This document shows positions 26,233-56,820 of a stretch of 64,000 nucleotides of DNA, in pieces. Location: positions 13,488-77,487 of the forward strand of contig URIZ01000002.1 of the NCBI GenBank assembly GCA_900548005.1, given 5' to 3'. Made by a program: the position numbers and the translations under genes. Positions within the stretch are counted from its first letter, which is position 1. Each line of letters starts with the position of its first letter. The DNA comes from an uncultured Eubacteriales bacterium. GTDB taxonomy: Bacteria > Bacillota > Clostridia > Christensenellales > CAG-917. The notes beneath the pieces were generated by a model. That model searched no databases. It was given only the letters and a program-made list of their open reading frames with translations, and was not told the origin of the DNA.

Positions 26233-26252
26233 CGAACAAAAGCCGTCATTGC

Positions 26253-26394
26253 GGCAACGGCATCGCTTGCGTGCAAGCAACGCCGAGAGCCGCATTAGGC
26301 TTGTTGTTCTGCTAACCGCGCCGAAAATCTTTGCTATCAGTCTGGTCACGGACAAAAACTCCTGCCGCAATTTCGCAAGATTGTCGGCTTGGTG
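26253..26394. repeat. dispersed repeat, P+Q modules (copy 1 of 4)
   Basis: GGCAACGGCATCGCTTGC..GCAAGCAAYGCCGAGAGCC hairpin followed by TCTGCTAACCGCG...AAAAACTCC..CCGCARTTTCGC.ARATTRTCKGCTTGGTG. Other copies are at 46323-46510, 46511-46658 and 56733-56820. Confidence 0.85.
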
Positions 26395-26423
26395 TTTTAA
26401 GCGGTAAAATTCAAATATTCCGT

Positions 26424-26651
26424 GTCATCCTGAGCTTGTCGAAGGATCTCGTGGAAACGAAACGTCACTATATACACGTCATTTTACATCATTCCGCTAC
26501 CGCGAGATTGCCACGCTTACGCTACTCGCAACTGCTATGCTTGCGCATAGAAACCTGCGGTTTTGCCTTTTTCAAAGGCGTTGCTACGTGAATACATACG
26601 CTACGCAACCCTTGCAAGCAAGTTGCTCCGCTTTGCATTGACAACATGACA
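26424..26651. repeat. dispersed repeat, R module (copy 1 of 2)
   Basis: About 228 bp, highly similar to 46697-46924, except that 26435-26522 is the reverse complement of 46708-46795. Contains several short hairpins (CTATGC-TTGC-GCATAG, the CTTGCAAG palindrome). Confidence 0.9.
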
Positions 26652-42649: not shown

Positions 42650-42722
42650 CTTAAAAACCGCTTGAAAAATGCCGCTTGTTATGTTAAAATTATTTAGATT
42701 TATTATAAGGCGGTGTAGCATA

Positions 42723-45700
42723 TTGTTAAATTTCGTCAAAATCGAAGCAAGGGGTTTCAAATCCTTTGCTGACAAAATCGAAATTCCGTTTCAGGAAGGC
42801 GTAACGGCGATTATCGGACCGAACGGGTGCGGCAAATCCAACGTTGCGGACGCTATCCGTTGGACGCTGGGCGAGCAAAGCGCAAAATCTCTGCGCGGCA
42901 AAAACATGCAAGACGTCATTTTTGCCGGCACGGAAAAGCGCAAGAGCATGTCTTATTGCGAAGTGTCGCTCACATTCAACAACTCGAATCAGCACATTTT
43001 CCCCACGATGCCTTTCGACGAAGTGGTCATCACGAGAAAACTTGATCGCAGCGGACTTTCCGAATACTACATAAACCACAATCGCGTTCGTATGCGTGAC
43101 GTCATTTCCCTTTTCCACGACACGGGCATCGGCAAGGAGGGCTATTCCATCATCGGACAGGGCAGAGTTGCCGAAATCATGTCCGCAAAGCCGGGGGATC
43201 GCCGTCAGATATTCGAAGAAGCGGCAGGCATTTCAAAATTCCGCGCGCAACGCACCGAGGCGGAAAGAAAACTTGAAAAAACCGCCGTCAATCTCGACAC
43301 GGCAAATCAGCTCATCGAAGAAATTCAAAAGCAAATCAATCCTTTGCGCCGCCAAGCAGAGACCGCGCAAAAGTATTTTGAACTCAAAGCCGAGCTGAAA
43401 AAGAACGAAGTCAATCTCTACATCTACAACTACGAGAACAACCAAGGCATAAAAGAGAAGATCAACGCCAAGATCGATAAGGCGGTGACCGAGCTTAGAA
43501 TCCGCGAGATGCAACTTGCAGAGTGCGTCAAAAAATACGATGACAGCATGCGAGAGCTTGCCGGCATTGACAGAGTGTATGACGATGCCAACGGCGAGTT
43601 GTTGTCGCTAAAAGTCGACGCGGCGAAAATCGAAGGTCAAGCGGGCATTCTCAAAGAGCGTATCAACCACATTCAAGGCGAGATCACAAGACTTAACAGC
43701 GAGTTGCAATCTATTGACAATCAGCTCATCGTCAGCGGCAATCTCATTCAAAAGGCGGAAGAGAAGAAGGAAAGCGAGTTTCAAGCGTTCTTGCTTGCAA
43801 AACAGGAAGCGGACGCATTGGAAGCCAAGTATTCTTCGCTCACTCGTACGCTTGCGGGCTCGGAGACCGATCTTGAGGCTCGCAACACTGAGTACGTCCG
43901 CGCAATCGAAGAATTGGGCGCATTGAAGACCAATCTTTCAAGTATTGTTGCCGAAAAAGGTATCAACGAAGAGCGCGCCAAAAACTTGAACGCACTTGTC
44001 AATCAGCAAAAAGCGCGCCTTGACGAAGAACTCACCAATCTGTCAATATACGATGCAAACGTCAAATCCACAAAAGAGCGTATGCGTCAGCTTATGACGG
44101 AGTACAACGAGACGCTTTCCACAAAAATGGAGTGTCAAGAGGCGATAAAGAGTTATGCCGACGACGTGATTTCGCTCAACCAAAAGCTTGCGATCGTGCT
44201 GAGCAATCTCAACCTTGCAACGTCCATAAAGAACGACTATGCAGGCTATCAAGAGGCGGTCAAACGTCTTATGCAGGACTCAAAACACGATCCGGTGCTC
44301 GAGAGCAAAATCATGGGCGTTATGGCGGAAGTCATCACCGTTCCGAGCGATTTTGAGGCGGCAATCGAATACGCGCTCGGCGGAGCAATGCAAAACGTGC
44401 TTGTCGAGAACGAAAACGACGCAAAAGACCTTATCAACTATTTGAAACAAAAAGGCTATGGTCGTATTACGTTCCGTCCGCTATCTTCTTGCCGTCCGCG
44501 CCCCATACCTGCCGAACATCGCGGCATTTTGTCCGAGCCGGGCTGCTACGGGCTTGCGAGCGATCTTATCAAATACGACAAGCGGTTTGACGGATTTGTG
44601 CAGACGTTGCTTGGCTCGACCGTGGTTGTCAACAACATCGACAACGCAGTCAGAATATTCAAAAAATACAATCAAGCGGTGAAGATTGTCACTCTTGACG
44701 GCGAAATTTTCTCTCGCGGCGGCGAAATCACGGGTGGTTCGAGAAGATCTCAAACCAACGGTTTGCTTGCGCAAGAGAAGAAGATCGAACAATATCAAGC
44801 GAGTCTTGAAAAGATCAAGAGCAACATCGCGCTTTTGGACAAGCAAAAGCAAGAGCGCGAGCAAGAACTCAAAGATTGTGAAGAGCGCATCGAGAGTTTG
44901 AATAAGGAAATCGGCGAGTTGCGCATAGACAATGGGCTCAACGAAGACAAGGCAAAACAAGCCTTTGAAGTGACCGAGGCTCTCAAGGGCGAAATCTCCG
45001 AAAAGGCGAAGGAATACGAGATTGTCAAGTCGCGTATAAAGGAATTGGACGAAAAAGTCAGCTCCATTGACGAGCTTGAAAAGATTGTCAACGAGAGAAA
45101 GACGGAATACACCACCTTGCTTGAAAGCTCCAAGAGCACAAGCTCCGAGCAAAAGAGCGAGCGTGAAACCATGATGACGCAAGTCACCGAAATGCGAGTC
45201 AAACTTGCGGGATACAAGGCAAATCTTGACGCTATCGACCAAGAGCTCAACCGCTACAACCGCGAAAAGCAATCGCTTGAAGAAGACAAGATGGATTGCA
45301 TTGCCGACCTAAAACGCGAAGAGCAAAATCTTGCCAACATCGAAAACGCGCCTGAAAAAACCGTGTTCTCAAAGGAAGACGAAGAACGTATTGCGGCTCT
45401 TGAAAAGCAAATTACGGAATTTTCCGAACGCAAGCAAATTCTCACCGAAAGCATCAAATCGCTTGACGCGGAGAAGACTCGTCTTACGGAAGAAAAGAGC
45501 AAGCTCGGCGAAGACAAGGTGCGCGCGGAAGGTATGTTGCAACAAGTGGACATTGAGATCCGCAATCAACAACAACACATTCTCGAAGAGTACGATTTGA
45601 CGTATTCGAGCTGTCTTGAATTCAAAGATCCCGAGTTCAAGGCGTACGGCGCGCTGACCGTCATATCCGACCTTAAAAAGTCCATCAACAGGCTCGGCGA

Positions 45701-46313
45701 CGTCAACCCGCTCGCTTTGCAGACCTTGCAAGAGACCGAAGAAAGACTTCAAGAGCAAGTGACCTATCGCGACGACATCCAAAAAGCGTATGATGACATC
45801 GTCACAATCATCAACGAGCTTACGGGCGAGATGCAAACCAAGTTTACGGACGCTTTTGCCCAAATCAGCGAAAACTTCAAGGAAGTGTTCCAACAACTCT
45901 TCGGCGGTGGCAAGGGCGAGCTGCGTCTAAACATGCAAGACACGGACGATCCGCTTGAAGCGGGTATCGACATCTACGCTCAGCCCCCGGGAAAGAAATT
46001 GCAAAACATCTCGCTTTTGAGCGGCGGAGAGCAAGCACTCACGGCAATATCCATATTGTTTGCAATCCTCAAGCTCAAACCGATGCCGTTCTGCGTGCTT
46101 GACGAAATCGAAGCGGCTCTTGACGATGCAAACGTCAACTTGTTTGCCGAATTCTTGAAGAAATTCAGCGACTACACGCAATTCATCGTCATCACGCACA
46201 GAAAACCGACCATGCGCCACGCAGACACGATTTTCGGTGTTACGATGGAAGAAAAGGGCGTCACCAAGATCGTTTCAATCGAATTTGAAGATGCGGTAAA
46301 ACACGCAAAATGA
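42723..46313 (+). CDS. smc: chromosome partition protein Smc
   Basis: Walker A GPNGCGKSN, long coiled coils, hinge, signature LSGGEQALTAI, Walker B FCVLDEIEAALD. The TTG 42723 start (AAGGCGGTG RBS) gives the canonical M-LNFVKIEARGFKSF N-terminus. The ORF is open from 42669. Confidence 0.9.
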   Translation: MLNFVKIEARGFKSFADKIEIPFQEGVTAIIGPNGCGKSNVADAIRWTLGEQSAKSLRGKNMQDVIFAGTEKRKSMSYCEVSLTFNNSNQHIFPTMPFDEVVITRKLDRSGLSEYYINHNRVRMRDVISLFHDTGIGKEGYSIIGQGRVAEIMSAKPGDRRQIFEEAAGISKFRAQRTEAERKLEKTAVNLDTANQLIEEIQKQINPLRRQAETAQKYFELKAELKKNEVNLYIYNYENNQGIKEKINAKIDKAVTELRIREMQLAECVKKYDDSMRELAGIDRVYDDANGELLSLKVDAAKIEGQAGILKERINHIQGEITRLNSELQSIDNQLIVSGNLIQKAEEKKESEFQAFLLAKQEADALEAKYSSLTRTLAGSETDLEARNTEYVRAIEELGALKTNLSSIVAEKGINEERAKNLNALVNQQKARLDEELTNLSIYDANVKSTKERMRQLMTEYNETLSTKMECQEAIKSYADDVISLNQKLAIVLSNLNLATSIKNDYAGYQEAVKRLMQDSKHDPVLESKIMGVMAEVITVPSDFEAAIEYALGGAMQNVLVENENDAKDLINYLKQKGYGRITFRPLSSCRPRPIPAEHRGILSEPGCYGLASDLIKYDKRFDGFVQTLLGSTVVVNNIDNAVRIFKKYNQAVKIVTLDGEIFSRGGEITGGSRRSQTNGLLAQEKKIEQYQASLEKIKSNIALLDKQKQEREQELKDCEERIESLNKEIGELRIDNGLNEDKAKQAFEVTEALKGEISEKAKEYEIVKSRIKELDEKVSSIDELEKIVNERKTEYTTLLESSKSTSSEQKSERETMMTQVTEMRVKLAGYKANLDAIDQELNRYNREKQSLEEDKMDCIADLKREEQNLANIENAPEKTVFSKEDEERIAALEKQITEFSERKQILTESIKSLDAEKTRLTEEKSKLGEDKVRAEGMLQQVDIEIRNQQQHILEEYDLTYSSCLEFKDPEFKAYGALTVISDLKKSINRLGDVNPLALQTLQETEERLQEQVTYRDDIQKAYDDIVTIINELTGEMQTKFTDAFAQISENFKEVFQQLFGGGKGELRLNMQDTDDPLEAGIDIYAQPPGKKLQNISLLSGGEQALTAISILFAILKLKPMPFCVLDEIEAALDDANVNLFAEFLKKFSDYTQFIVITHRKPTMRHADTIFGVTMEEKGVTKIVSIEFEDAVKHAK

Positions 46314-46322
46314 GCAAAAACC

Positions 46323-46510
46323 GTCGCATAGGCAACGGCATCGCTTGCAAGCAAGCAATGCCGAGAGCCTGGCTAGGTTTATTGCTCTGCTAACCGCGCA
46401 GAGAATTTGCGCTCTCAGTTCAAGCAGGGGCAAAAACTCCTGTTGCAGTTTCGCCAAATTATCTGCTTGGTATGTTCGAAAGGGCGGGACACCCGCACCC
46501 GAATAAAAAT
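46323..46510. repeat. dispersed repeat, P+Q modules plus GGGCGGG hairpin (copy 2a)
   Basis: Direct tandem partner of 46511-46658. Starts 10 nt after the smc stop. Confidence 0.9.
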
Positions 46511-46658
46511 GTCGCATAGGCAACGGCATCGCTTGCAAGCAAGCAATGCCGAGAGCCTGGCTAGGTTTATTGCTCTGCTAACCGCGCAGAGAATTTGTGA
46601 CAGTTCAAGCAGGGGCAAAAACTCCGACCGCAGTTTCGCCAAATTATCTGCTTGGTGG
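46511..46658. repeat. dispersed repeat, P+Q modules (copy 2b)
   Basis: Near-identical to 46323-46471 over the P hairpin and the TCTGCTAACCGCGCAGAGAATTTG...CTGCTTGGT core. Confidence 0.9.
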
Positions 46659-46696
46659 CTCGCTCCGCTAGCGGTTTGTCGCAAAAGCCCCCTGTT

Positions 46697-46924
46697 GTCA
46701 TTGCGAGCGCAAGCGTGGCAATCTCGCGGGAGCGGAATGATGTGAAATGACGTGCATATAGTGCCGTTTCGTTTCCACGAGATCCTTCGACAAGCTACTC
46801 GCAACAGCTATGCTTACGCATAGAACCTGCGGTTTTGCCTTTTTCAAAGGCGTTGCTACGTGAATACATATGCTACGCAACCCTTGCAAGCAAGTTGCTC
46901 CGCTTTGCATTGACAGGATGACAA
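46697..46924. repeat. dispersed repeat, R module (copy 2 of 2)
   Basis: Matches 26424-26651, with the central 88 bp (46708-46795) inverted. Ends 70 nt before the ftsY ATG. Confidence 0.9.
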
Positions 46925-46993
46925 TAAGGGCGGCTCGTTGGAATATCGCCATTTGAATGGCAAGTACAATAAAATCTTATAAAGGATGACAAT

Positions 46994-47887
46994 ATGGGAT
47001 TTTTTCAAAAAATCAAAGAAGGTATAAAAAAGACCAAAGACGCTTTCTCAAAAAAGCTGTTTTTTGCATTTTCCGCACGTGAACTCAACGATGAGTTTTA
47101 TGAAAATCTCGAAGAAGCGTTGCTGACCGCCGACGTTGGCATAACCGCAACCGAAAACTTGCTTGAAGAGCTTAAAAACGAGATTTTCAAGCGCAAAATC
47201 AAGAAACCCGAAGATGCCAAATCCGTGCTTGCCGAGCTTATGGTGCAAGACATCGATTATGATGTGCCGGAGTATGAATATCCGCTCGTGATTTTGCTTT
47301 CGGGCGTCAACGGCGTTGGCAAAACGACTGCGATCGGCAAACTTGCGCACAGATTCAAAGAAGAAGGCAAGTCGGTTGTGGTTGCGGCGGCAGATACGTT
47401 CAGAGCGGCGGCAAGCGAGCAACTCGAAGTGTGGGGGCAGCGTGCAGGCGTGCGTGTGATTCGCCACAGCGAAGGCGCAGATCCTGCAGCAGTCGTGTTT
47501 GACGCGATTTCGTCCGCAAAGGCAAAAGGCAATGACGTTGTGCTTATCGACACGGCAGGCAGACTTCACAACAAGAAGAATCTCATGGCGGAATTGCAAA
47601 AGATTTGCCGTGTGGTGGATATAGAACTTCCCGAGGCGGACTTCCGCAAATATCTCGTGCTTGACGCAACGACTGGACAAAACGCGGTTTCTCAGGCGCA
47701 AATTTTCAGTGAAGACATCGACACTGACGGCATCATTCTCACAAAACTTGACGGAACGGCAAAGGGCGGTGTCGTGCTTGCAATCAGCGATGAAATCGGA
47801 CTTCCCGTCGTATATGTAGGTGTTGGCGAACAAATCGACGATTTGATCCCCTTCAACGCAAAGGAATTTATCGACGCATTGCTGTAA
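46994..47887 (+). CDS. ftsY: signal recognition particle receptor FtsY (short form)
   Basis: NG domain with GVNGVGKTTAIGKLA, DTAGRLHNK, TKLDGTAKGG. Confidence 0.92.
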   Translation: MGFFQKIKEGIKKTKDAFSKKLFFAFSARELNDEFYENLEEALLTADVGITATENLLEELKNEIFKRKIKKPEDAKSVLAELMVQDIDYDVPEYEYPLVILLSGVNGVGKTTAIGKLAHRFKEEGKSVVVAAADTFRAAASEQLEVWGQRAGVRVIRHSEGADPAAVVFDAISSAKAKGNDVVLIDTAGRLHNKKNLMAELQKICRVVDIELPEADFRKYLVLDATTGQNAVSQAQIFSEDIDTDGIILTKLDGTAKGGVVLAISDEIGLPVVYVGVGEQIDDLIPFNAKEFIDALL

Positions 47888-47915
47888 AACAGTGGTTTAG
47901 ATTATCAAAAAATGC

Positions 47916-47943
47916 AAAAGCGAGGCTGAAAAGTCTCGCTTTT
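47916..47943 (+). terminator. terminator after ftsY
   Basis: AAAAGCGAG-GCTGAAAAGT-CTCGCTTTTG. Confidence 0.7.
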
Positions 47944-48142
47944 GAAATTTCTTGAACGTTGAGTTTTGATATAACACTACGTTGCATTTTACGCTATATT
48001 ACATTGATTTTTAATAAAGTAATATATTGGTTTTTTTTTGCATTGTATTTCGTTTGTGAGTCGGACTGTTTTGCGGTTTGGTGATAATATATGTTTTTAG
48101 TTAAAATAATACAAAATATGTCCGTATGTAATGTAAATTTGC

Positions 48143-48171
48143 TTGACACCCTTTTTAATTCGGAGTATTAT
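48143..48171 (+). promoter_or_regulatory. sigma-A-type promoter for ylxM-ffh
   Basis: TTGACA, 17-nt spacer, TATTAT. Confidence 0.6.
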
Positions 48172-48203
48172 AGTGTCAAGCAATTGTGTTTGACAGGTGC
48201 AAT

Positions 48204-56654: not shown

Positions 56655-56684
56655 TACTAGACTAAAAATCATCGCGTATTTACG

Positions 56685-56715
56685 AAATGCCCGCAATTTT
56701 GCGGGCATTTCTTTT
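56685..56715 (+). terminator. terminator after the CBM/GT-C gene
   Basis: AAATGCCCGC-AATTTT-GCGGGCATTT followed by CTTTT. Nested inside a longer inverted repeat TAGACTAAAAATCA / TGATTTTTAGTCT. Confidence 0.75.
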
Positions 56716-56732
56716 GTTCGCTTGATTTTTAG

Positions 56733-56820
56733 TCTGCTAACCGCGCAGAAAATCTCAGTTATCATATCATACATGGTTAAAAGTTCCAACCGCAATTTCA
56801 CGAGATTGTCTGCTTGGTGG
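56733..56820. repeat. dispersed repeat, Q module (copy 3)
   Basis: TCTGCTAACCGCGCAGAAAATC ... CCGCAATTTCACGAGATTGTCTGCTTGGTGG, the same ends and spacing as 26308-26394 and the 46.4/46.6-kb copies. The interior is more diverged. Confidence 0.75.

Follow-up and report, generated by a model that had tools for sequence, protein, structure and literature searches.

In Bacillus subtilis, smc and ftsY (srb) are adjacent genes of the rnc-smc-ftsY operon. Intercistronic hairpin repeats within operons are known from Enterobacteria, where the REP/BIME elements act as transcript stabilisers and attenuators. The ERIC/IRU and Correia elements, imperfect palindromes of ~100–150 nt, are also transcribed within operons and, depending on their orientation, affect cleavage of the mRNA by RNase E or RNase III (PMC3049150). 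Streptococcus pneumoniae carries the small interspersed repeats SPRITE, BOX and RUP (Croucher et al., 2011; PMC3049150). Repeats of this sort are usually dismissed as tolerated parasites.

The window analyzed here is a stretch of 64,000 nucleotides from an uncultured gut Christensenella-like bacterium, whose genome (G000) comprises 1.57 Mb on 26 contigs and is 98.7% complete. Its local gene order, plsX-rnc-smc-ftsY-ylxM-ffh-rpsP, agrees with that of B. subtilis, but 680 nt separate smc from ftsY, which are not adjacent here: smc (42669–46313, + strand, 1214 aa in the ORF list, with the Pfam domains SMC_N and SMC_hinge) ends at 46313, while ftsY (46994–47887, + strand, 297 aa, SRP54 and SRP54_N) starts at 46994. 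The gap of 46314–46993 is a stack of three kinds of small non-coding repeat. An earlier note on this DNA had described it as a gene-free repeat mosaic that splits the smc-ftsY pair, and this description is borne out by the comparison with 25 relatives, in which the spacer was measured: it amounts to 0–27 nt in distant members of the genus and in most other families aligned. The absence of a credible ORF was likewise confirmed, as element A (see below) contains no conserved reading frame and no frame remains open throughout 80 of its copies. A 17-codon bottom-strand ORF with an AGGAG motif in A was rejected, since its start is not conserved. Two stop-free frames run through the repeats, one of 112 codons at 46407–46745 (+ strand) and one of 129 codons at 46415–46804 (− strand), and gene callers will probably report them as hypothetical proteins.

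When the gap was compared by BLAST with its own 1.57-Mb genome, 116 matching pieces were obtained, far above chance. Three repeat families were resolved: A (~160 nt, present twice), B (an imperfect palindrome of ~100 nt) and C (~130 nt). BLAST coverage corresponds to ~30–40 genome copies across the first A core (46314–46472) and likewise across the second A (46504–46657), to ~20 copies for the tail hairpin (to 46503), ~5 for a low-copy tail (to 46693), ~25 for B (46694–46793) and 8 for C (46794–46923), and 46924–46993 is single copy. Iterated nhmmer searches of the genome returned 50 matches for A (27–28 of them near full length), 69 on both strands for B (~12 full copies and many half copies) and 8 for C. 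The statement that the gap is built entirely from repeat modules thus holds for nearly all of it, the exception being the ~70 native bases before ftsY.

The core of the first A copy (46312–46472, + strand) is matched by the covariance model with 172 bits. It comprises domain 1 (46312–46387), a long hairpin whose basal stem begins within the smc stop codon, the foot of the stem being formed by the last smc codons GCA AAA and the stop codon, and domain 2 (46393–46472), a second helix stack. A type-1 tail follows (46473–46503, + strand), which is found after ~14 of the 27 full copies in the genome and contains the GGGCGGG hairpin that had been noticed before (GGGCGGG-ACA-CCCGCACCC, 46482–46500). 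The second A copy lies in tandem (46501–46657, + strand) and was recognized both as a direct repeat and by the covariance model. The two direct units that had been proposed are real, with 98% identity between 46317–46409 and 46505–46597 and 93% between 46416–46471 and 46601–46656, but their boundaries differ slightly, the first A extending with its tail to 46503 and the second one spanning 46501–46657. It is followed by a third type of tail (GCTCGCTCCGCTAGCG..., 46658–46693, + strand) of low copy number (BLAST coverage 5–6 copies); tails resembling it also occur 3' of two other old A copies.

Repeat B (46694–46793), found by nhmmer on both strands, has TGTCAT-tagged ends, and its right end is truncated at the start of C (46794–46923, + strand), which ends in ...TTGACAGGATGACA. 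These two had been taken for a single "R unit"; it is indeed dispersed repeat, but it consists of two separate families. In a second mosaic of the window, B is inverted relative to C. The remaining ~70 nt (46924–46993, + strand) form a native ftsY-proximal leader, which is common to the related genomes G001 and G050 and contains the ftsY ribosome-binding site AAAGGA at 46981–46986. The end hairpin of B (TGTCATTGCGAGCG...GGCAATCTCG, 46694–46725) has exact matches in 15 viral-contig stretches (L296–L310) from unrelated metagenomes, with a chance expectation estimated at ~0.01, so that this short motif is far more widespread than the genus-specific repeats around it.

A 16-nt near-repeat occurs at 46915–46930 and 46983–46998. 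Within it, AGGATGACAATA is present twice, as the earlier note had stated, at 46915–46926 and 46983–46994, 1–2 nt away from the coordinates given there. As a meaningful repeat it does not hold up: eight of its bases belong to the 3' terminus of the C consensus, and the copy at the ribosome-binding site is native, since it is also found in the relative G050, which lacks C. For the same reason, we rejected the idea that the two copies are a target-site duplication. The ribosome-binding region of ftsY (46981–46994) reads AAAGGATGACAAT within the clade, which is the reverse complement of the B-type end TGTCATCCT, and TTAAGGTGGACT outside the clade; the match within the clade raises the possibility that the Shine-Dalgarno sequence may derive from a repeat terminus.

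Repeats of these families are also found elsewhere in the window. The second mosaic (26234–26651, + strand), consisting of A, inverted B and C, is located 90 nt upstream of the SRP RNA gene, and its B copy (26420–26520) is the one inverted relative to C. Both copies of C in the window hence lie just upstream of signal-recognition components, the SRP RNA gene and ftsY, which may be coincidence given the 8 genome copies of C. Directly before the A at 26234, the segment 25790–26233 is occupied by another repeat family with units of ~110–240 nt and GTAC-containing hairpins (CAACTCATGTAC...), represented by 136 BLAST pieces in the genome. A third, diverged A copy (56660–56819, + strand; covariance-model match) lies 3' of a gene end; it has the basal stem AGACTAAAAATCA/TGATTTTTAGTCT and an inner hairpin that forms a canonical terminator (GAAATGCCCGC-AATT-TTGCGGGCATTTC-TTTTG).

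To survey the range of A, a covariance model was built and applied to the genus and the order. Of 52 genus members, 40 contain A, with a maximum of 54 matches in one genome; 150 further genomes of the order, five of which represent other genera of the same family, gave no match. Exact-pattern matches come from human-gut MAGs labelled Christensenella sp., uncultured Clostridia or Firmicutes bacterium CAG:238; the few exact-match bins under other labels are taken to be mislabelled. B and C were detected by BLAST in the closest relatives only. An Rfam check, which had been proposed previously, yielded no RNA family for the insert: Rfam 15 matches in the window are confined to the SRP RNA and a tRNA, both elsewhere, with none at the gathering threshold in the gap, and a search of 46200–47100 with E values up to 10 returned chance-level matches only. 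A literature search on repeats in Christensenellales found no papers. Several contigs end inside A or B copies (C3:17-463, C24:129-463, C10:64989-65089 and C18:1-68), indicating that the repeats break the assembly and that copy numbers in MAGs are underestimates. Many copies are located at contig ends, and the repeats also create false ORFs of 100–130 codons; annotating A, B and C would improve gene calls for this group of bacteria.

The history of the junction was reconstructed from the relatives, as the earlier note had suggested. Spacers range from 0 to 682 nt. They measure 125–135 nt and lack A in four members of the genus and one genome of another family, and 212–682 nt in eight species, in all of which A begins at the second base after the smc stop. 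As G050 and G043 also carry A on the smc stop, the element is present there in at least 10 species. In G000, G001, G050, G016, G003 and G043 the junction contains two A copies. The second one retains the smc-mirroring arm and thus arose from the first by tandem duplication. The first domains of the two copies are 98% identical in G000 and distinct in G001 and G050, so they were homogenized later in G000. B and C are present at the junction in G000 and G001 and absent from G050, whose second A lacks its 3' part. G050 could be taken for the state before insertion of B and C; a deletion is more likely, because the second A is truncated and G001, which has B and C, is closer to G050 (0.19 at fourfold sites) than to G000 (0.31).

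We then compared the rate of change of A with that of the flanking genes. Between the four clades with the smc copy in common, divergence at fourfold sites of smc/ftsY amounts to 0.40–0.50, while the A core differs by 0.20–0.36 with 76 of 152 columns invariant, and the sequence directly 3' of the core differs by 0.5–0.8, which makes it effectively unalignable. Between G000 and G050, identity is 94% for two other old A copies and 91–92% for two consensus-type copies, at a fourfold-site difference of 0.30 at smc/ftsY. Each smc copy is most closely related to smc copies from other species or to its own tandem partner, indicating descent by locus. Orthologous A copies thus change several-fold more slowly than synonymous sites and are therefore under selection in place. 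Freely drifting sequence had been named as the observation that would speak against a structured insert; the insert is not of this kind, because the A core is conserved with compensatory changes in orthologues, whereas the adjacent sequence cannot be aligned. Judged by these comparisons, the element on the smc stop codon is an old, folded one that selection has preserved.

These data also bear on the idea that the whole insert is selfish or neutral junk, placed where it is least harmful, and that its fold reflects nothing beyond the needs of mobility. The distribution of the repeats is patchy and their copy number variable within one genus, young A copies are nearly identical, composite blocks present in one species are missing in the next, the folds of B and C are no better than those of shuffled sequences, and the pneumococcal repeats, which likewise favour positions 3' of genes, have been interpreted as tolerated there (PMC3049150). 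However, old orthologous copies retain 94% identity against a fourfold-site difference of 30%, the core on the smc stop can be aligned, with compensatory changes, across clades close to synonymous saturation, and the smc copies descend by locus and were not re-copied from a master. Since such conservation in place is not explicable by a need for mobility, we consider this interpretation unlikely.

RNAalifold, applied to 25 copies of the source genome, predicted a two-domain fold of A in which 23 of 47 pairs show compensatory changes. In an alignment of 77 distinct copies from many genomes, which was fitted to the covariance model and is thus biased toward structure, double-sided changes occur at 45 of the 47 pairs, 94.3% of the paired cells can pair in A compared with 78.0% in shuffles and 33–39% with slid partners, and the covariation score is 0.445 compared with 0.168 and 0.04–0.08, respectively. 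Compensatory changes are also plain in a MAFFT alignment of the orthologous smc copies, for example CGGCAACACGCA/TGCGTATTGCCG vs CAATATTGCGCG/CGCGCAACATTG vs CGACATCGCACC/GGTGCAACGTCG. A therefore shows the compensatory changes that characterize a structured RNA or a single-strand element under selection. Near-invariant unpaired stretches are GGCAAC, GAGAGCC, CUAACCGC, GCUAUCA and GCAGUUUCGC.

Domain 2 contains the invariant unpaired stretches CUAACCGC, GCUAUCAG, AAAAACUCC and GCA(A/G)UUUCGC, flanked by covarying helices, and this arrangement could be that of a ligand- or protein-sensing cis-regulator, similar to a riboswitch or attenuator, specific to ftsY. Such a role is extremely improbable in view of the dozens of A copies at unrelated loci, the mere 5 of 23 copies in G050 that have a co-oriented gene downstream, and the lack of an Rfam match even at E values up to 10.

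Which strand of A carries the fold was assessed by comparing the two. The bottom strand folds better in the alignment (alifold energies of −47.0 vs −36.3 for 80 copies), and of 25 copies, 23 reach a lower minimum free energy on this strand. Among 80 copies, the top strand has A.C or C.A at pair 29-48 in 43 and at pair 31-46 in 64; these read as G.U on the bottom strand. On the other hand, one 4-bp helix is rich in top-strand G.U pairs, and one pair is G.U in 72 of 77 rows. Domain 1 of the smc copy shows no strand preference, reaching −39.0 and −40.2 kcal/mol on the two strands, with z = −5.4 for each. Apparent UNCG tetraloops in the tail hairpins of relatives were discarded, as they are actually triloops and hence no evidence for RNA.

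The bottom strand could accordingly encode a small RNA, with domain 2 as its body and domain 1 as its own terminator, so that its end would abut the stop codon of the facing gene; at smc-ftsY it would be an antisense RNA. The better fold of this strand points in that direction, as do pairs 29-48 and 31-46, which are canonical only there in 78 and 73 of 80 copies, the location of the whole element upstream of a hairpin and U-tract when read from the bottom strand, and the facing gene on the tail side of 17 of 23 copies in G050. We nevertheless regard a bottom-strand RNA gene as quite unlikely: no conserved promoter lies at a fixed distance from the 5' end on this strand, the two common tail types sharing no −10/−35 pair; the short helix and the invariant G.U pair favour the top strand; the loops are not conserved as RNA tetraloops; and the element is anchored on the stop codon of the upstream gene, not on the gene at the tail side.

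Read along the top strand, every basal stem of A carries A's in its 5' arm and U's in its 3' arm, with GCC/GGC beside the tract, and domain 1, composed of an A-tract, a hairpin and a U-tract, resembles a two-way intrinsic terminator. The earlier statement that there is no obvious terminator after smc consequently needs qualifying, since the first 76 nt of A place these three parts on the stop codon. The hairpin of the smc copy is ~55 nt long and has internal loops, its U-tract is interrupted (GGUUUAUUGCUC), and domain 1 of this copy was not called on the top strand by a consensus terminator scan. ftsY is followed by a canonical terminator (GCGAGGC...GTCTCGC-TTTTG; 47888–48185 inspected), downstream of which lies the textbook ylxM-ffh promoter TTGACA-17-TATTAT. 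Recognizable transcription signals are thus in use in this genome.

An internal promoter for ftsY had been suggested as well. No canonical promoter was found before ftsY, the best match in the gap reaching 9/12, and a promoter in C or in the tails was dismissed, as nothing convincing was detected there. The native leader contains a weak promoter-like sequence, TCGCCA-18-TAAAAT, located 18 nt before the ATG. That the insert brings a separate promoter for ftsY, within C or the native 70 nt, and so uncouples this gene from smc after the insertion of a terminator is in our opinion very unlikely. C does end in TTGACA, both of its copies in the window lie upstream of SRP components, and the weak leader sequence is conserved in G000, G001 and G050; but no −10 box is found 16–18 nt past the TTGACA of C in either window copy, the SRP RNA gene has a clear promoter of its own downstream of C, the other copies of C do not consistently precede a gene start, and six species with A at the junction show no promoter-like match near ftsY. 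Given the lack of a canonical promoter before ftsY, we infer read-through with attenuation and not a new RNA gene: ftsY would still be read from the smc promoter, and A would here be at most a partial terminator or a stability element.

Per genome, A occupies 30–50 unrelated loci, most of them 3' of a gene and many flanked by convergent genes. Based on crude longest-ORF gene calls, 21 of 28 near-full copies in G000 are co-oriented with the gene on their 5' side, and of 23 copies in the closed genome G050 (CP091723.1), 17 share the direction of the upstream gene and 17 face a convergent one. With the origin of G050 placed near 830 kb by cumulative GC skew, 15 of the 23 copies (65%) point in the leading-strand direction, compared with 67% of the genes, and 6 of the 8 lagging-oriented copies come after a lagging-strand gene. 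The orientation of A thus tracks the neighbouring gene and not replication, and a replication-linked orientation, as in single-strand transposition of the IS200/IS605 type, was rejected on these figures.

The link to the upstream gene extends to its stop codon. In 22 of 98 unique A copies, an ORF of 90 codons or more has its stop codon inside the basal stem, and in 10 more the stop lies within 36 nt. The outer stem pairs vary by locus, with GAGC/GCTC after T-GA, AAGC/GCTT after T-AA and AAATGGT/ACCATTT at C7:43772. The latter site is empty in G050 (AAATGG-TGA-GCGCGC) and filled in G000 (AAATGG-TAAACC...[A]...GAT-TGAGAGCGCGC), from which it follows that A sits between the last sense codon and the old stop and supplies a new stop. 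The 3' arm of this A contains a 7-nt inverted copy of the host codons that is absent from the empty site; the two alleles differ by the element and an ambiguous 2 nt (GA or AG), with no clear target-site duplication. At smc, the basal stem consists of GCAAAATAATC paired with GATTATTTTGC in the species with A at the junction, G000 and G001 having a 7-nt variant (TGA-GCAAAAACC). Its 5' arm, which combines the stop codon of smc with the two codons before it and two further bases, was already there in species without A.

DNA-polymerase template switching is known to correct quasi-palindromes (Ripley; Dutra and Lovett). This process would explain the outer 3' arm as an inverted coding flank (AAATGGT/ACCATTT; GCAAAATAATC/GATTATTTTGC), the mirrored arm having the same length as the consensus arm that it would have replaced; no intermediate states were observed.

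To find out how A might be mobilized, we searched the source genome for three families, the Y1 transposase, TnpB and the reverse transcriptase, and found none of them. A Y1 transposase is present in 12 of 52 genomes of the genus, several of them with few or no A copies, and does not track A; it is absent from G000, G001, G050, G012 and G009, which carry 32–54 A copies each. In these five genomes, A is thus not accompanied by the RAYT gene found in carriers of REP/REPIN repeats. Nor does it have the terminal inverted repeats of a MITE, as it starts with GAACAAAAGCC and ends with GGCTTGGTG, which are not inverted; B, by comparison, has inverted ends of ~30 nt. No cognate full-length insertion sequence with matching ends emerged from the search for the same three families. 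Larger blocks of A, tail and B units are present or absent as composites beside existing B units, which suggests recombination between repeats as well as single insertions.

Taken together, our results suggest a gene-free pile-up of three genus-specific repeat families in which A serves as a 3'-end module that is read through, an explanation that as a whole we hold with slightly more than even confidence. The nucleus of the pile-up is an old, vertically inherited A whose basal stem takes in the smc stop codon and whose 3' arm mirrors the last smc codons. As the comparison with relatives shows, tandem duplication and homogenization of A, the addition of B and C in the G000/G001 lineage and a probable deletion in G050 followed. 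As a 3'-end module, A would use domain 1 as a two-way, terminator-like or exonuclease-blocking hairpin; at smc it would be co-transcribed with the gene and would only attenuate or shape the smc-ftsY transcript, so that ftsY would remain dependent on read-through from smc. Damping or shaping of transcripts is probably the role of the old A on the smc stop. The element would spread by a route that lands on stop codons, with its outer stem probably completed by DNA-polymerase template switching. Among the points against this proposal, efficient termination at domain 1 would keep transcripts of the upstream gene from reaching domain 2 and leave the strong conservation of domain 2 unexplained.

A further reading, possible in our view though doubtful, is that A forms a new class of structured nucleic acid under host selection, one written onto stop codons, with its basal stem completed from the last codons of the gene and its domain 2 binding a genus-specific factor. 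If the role proposed for A is true, the old copies would set the 3' end, the stability or the coupling of the transcripts that they close, and A would be either an unrecognized 3'-end RNA module or an unrecognized way for DNA to spread. At an operon junction that is essential and normally tight, an A copy has stayed on the stop codon, preserving its fold through compensatory change, until synonymous sites came close to saturation. The choice between junk and function thereby becomes a testable question in an abundant, poorly known lineage of the human gut.

Similar to the REP/BIME elements, the repeats at smc-ftsY are intercistronic and would be co-transcribed and alter the expression ratio of the flanking genes, and they form clusters of several unit types in both orientations. 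However, REP elements are 20–40 nt long and tied to RAYT (Y1) transposases, a gene that the source genome lacks, whereas A is four to five times longer and is no simple palindrome. B most resembles ERIC/IRU and Correia, although target-site duplications are not seen here and the host group differs.

The pneumococcal repeats (PMC3049150) offer the broadest parallel. Like the repeats described here, they are shorter than 200 nt, non-coding and present in dozens of copies within one species group; boxA-B-C and the gap are both modular mosaics that reach ~600 nt; and both the pneumococcal repeats and A are enriched behind genes and between convergent genes, with a strand preference that mirrors coding bias. 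SPRITE in particular shares with A the AAAA/TTTT ends, the long stem, the U-rich tract and the location near 3' gene ends (PMC3049150), a likeness of kind only and without a sequence relationship, as hosts and composition differ. Unlike the pneumococcal repeats, A has no terminal inverted repeats beyond the A/U tract. It further differs from them by a second conserved domain with invariant loops, by a basal stem that holds the host stop codon and mirrors host codons, and by old copies that are orthologous across species and change more slowly than synonymous sites.
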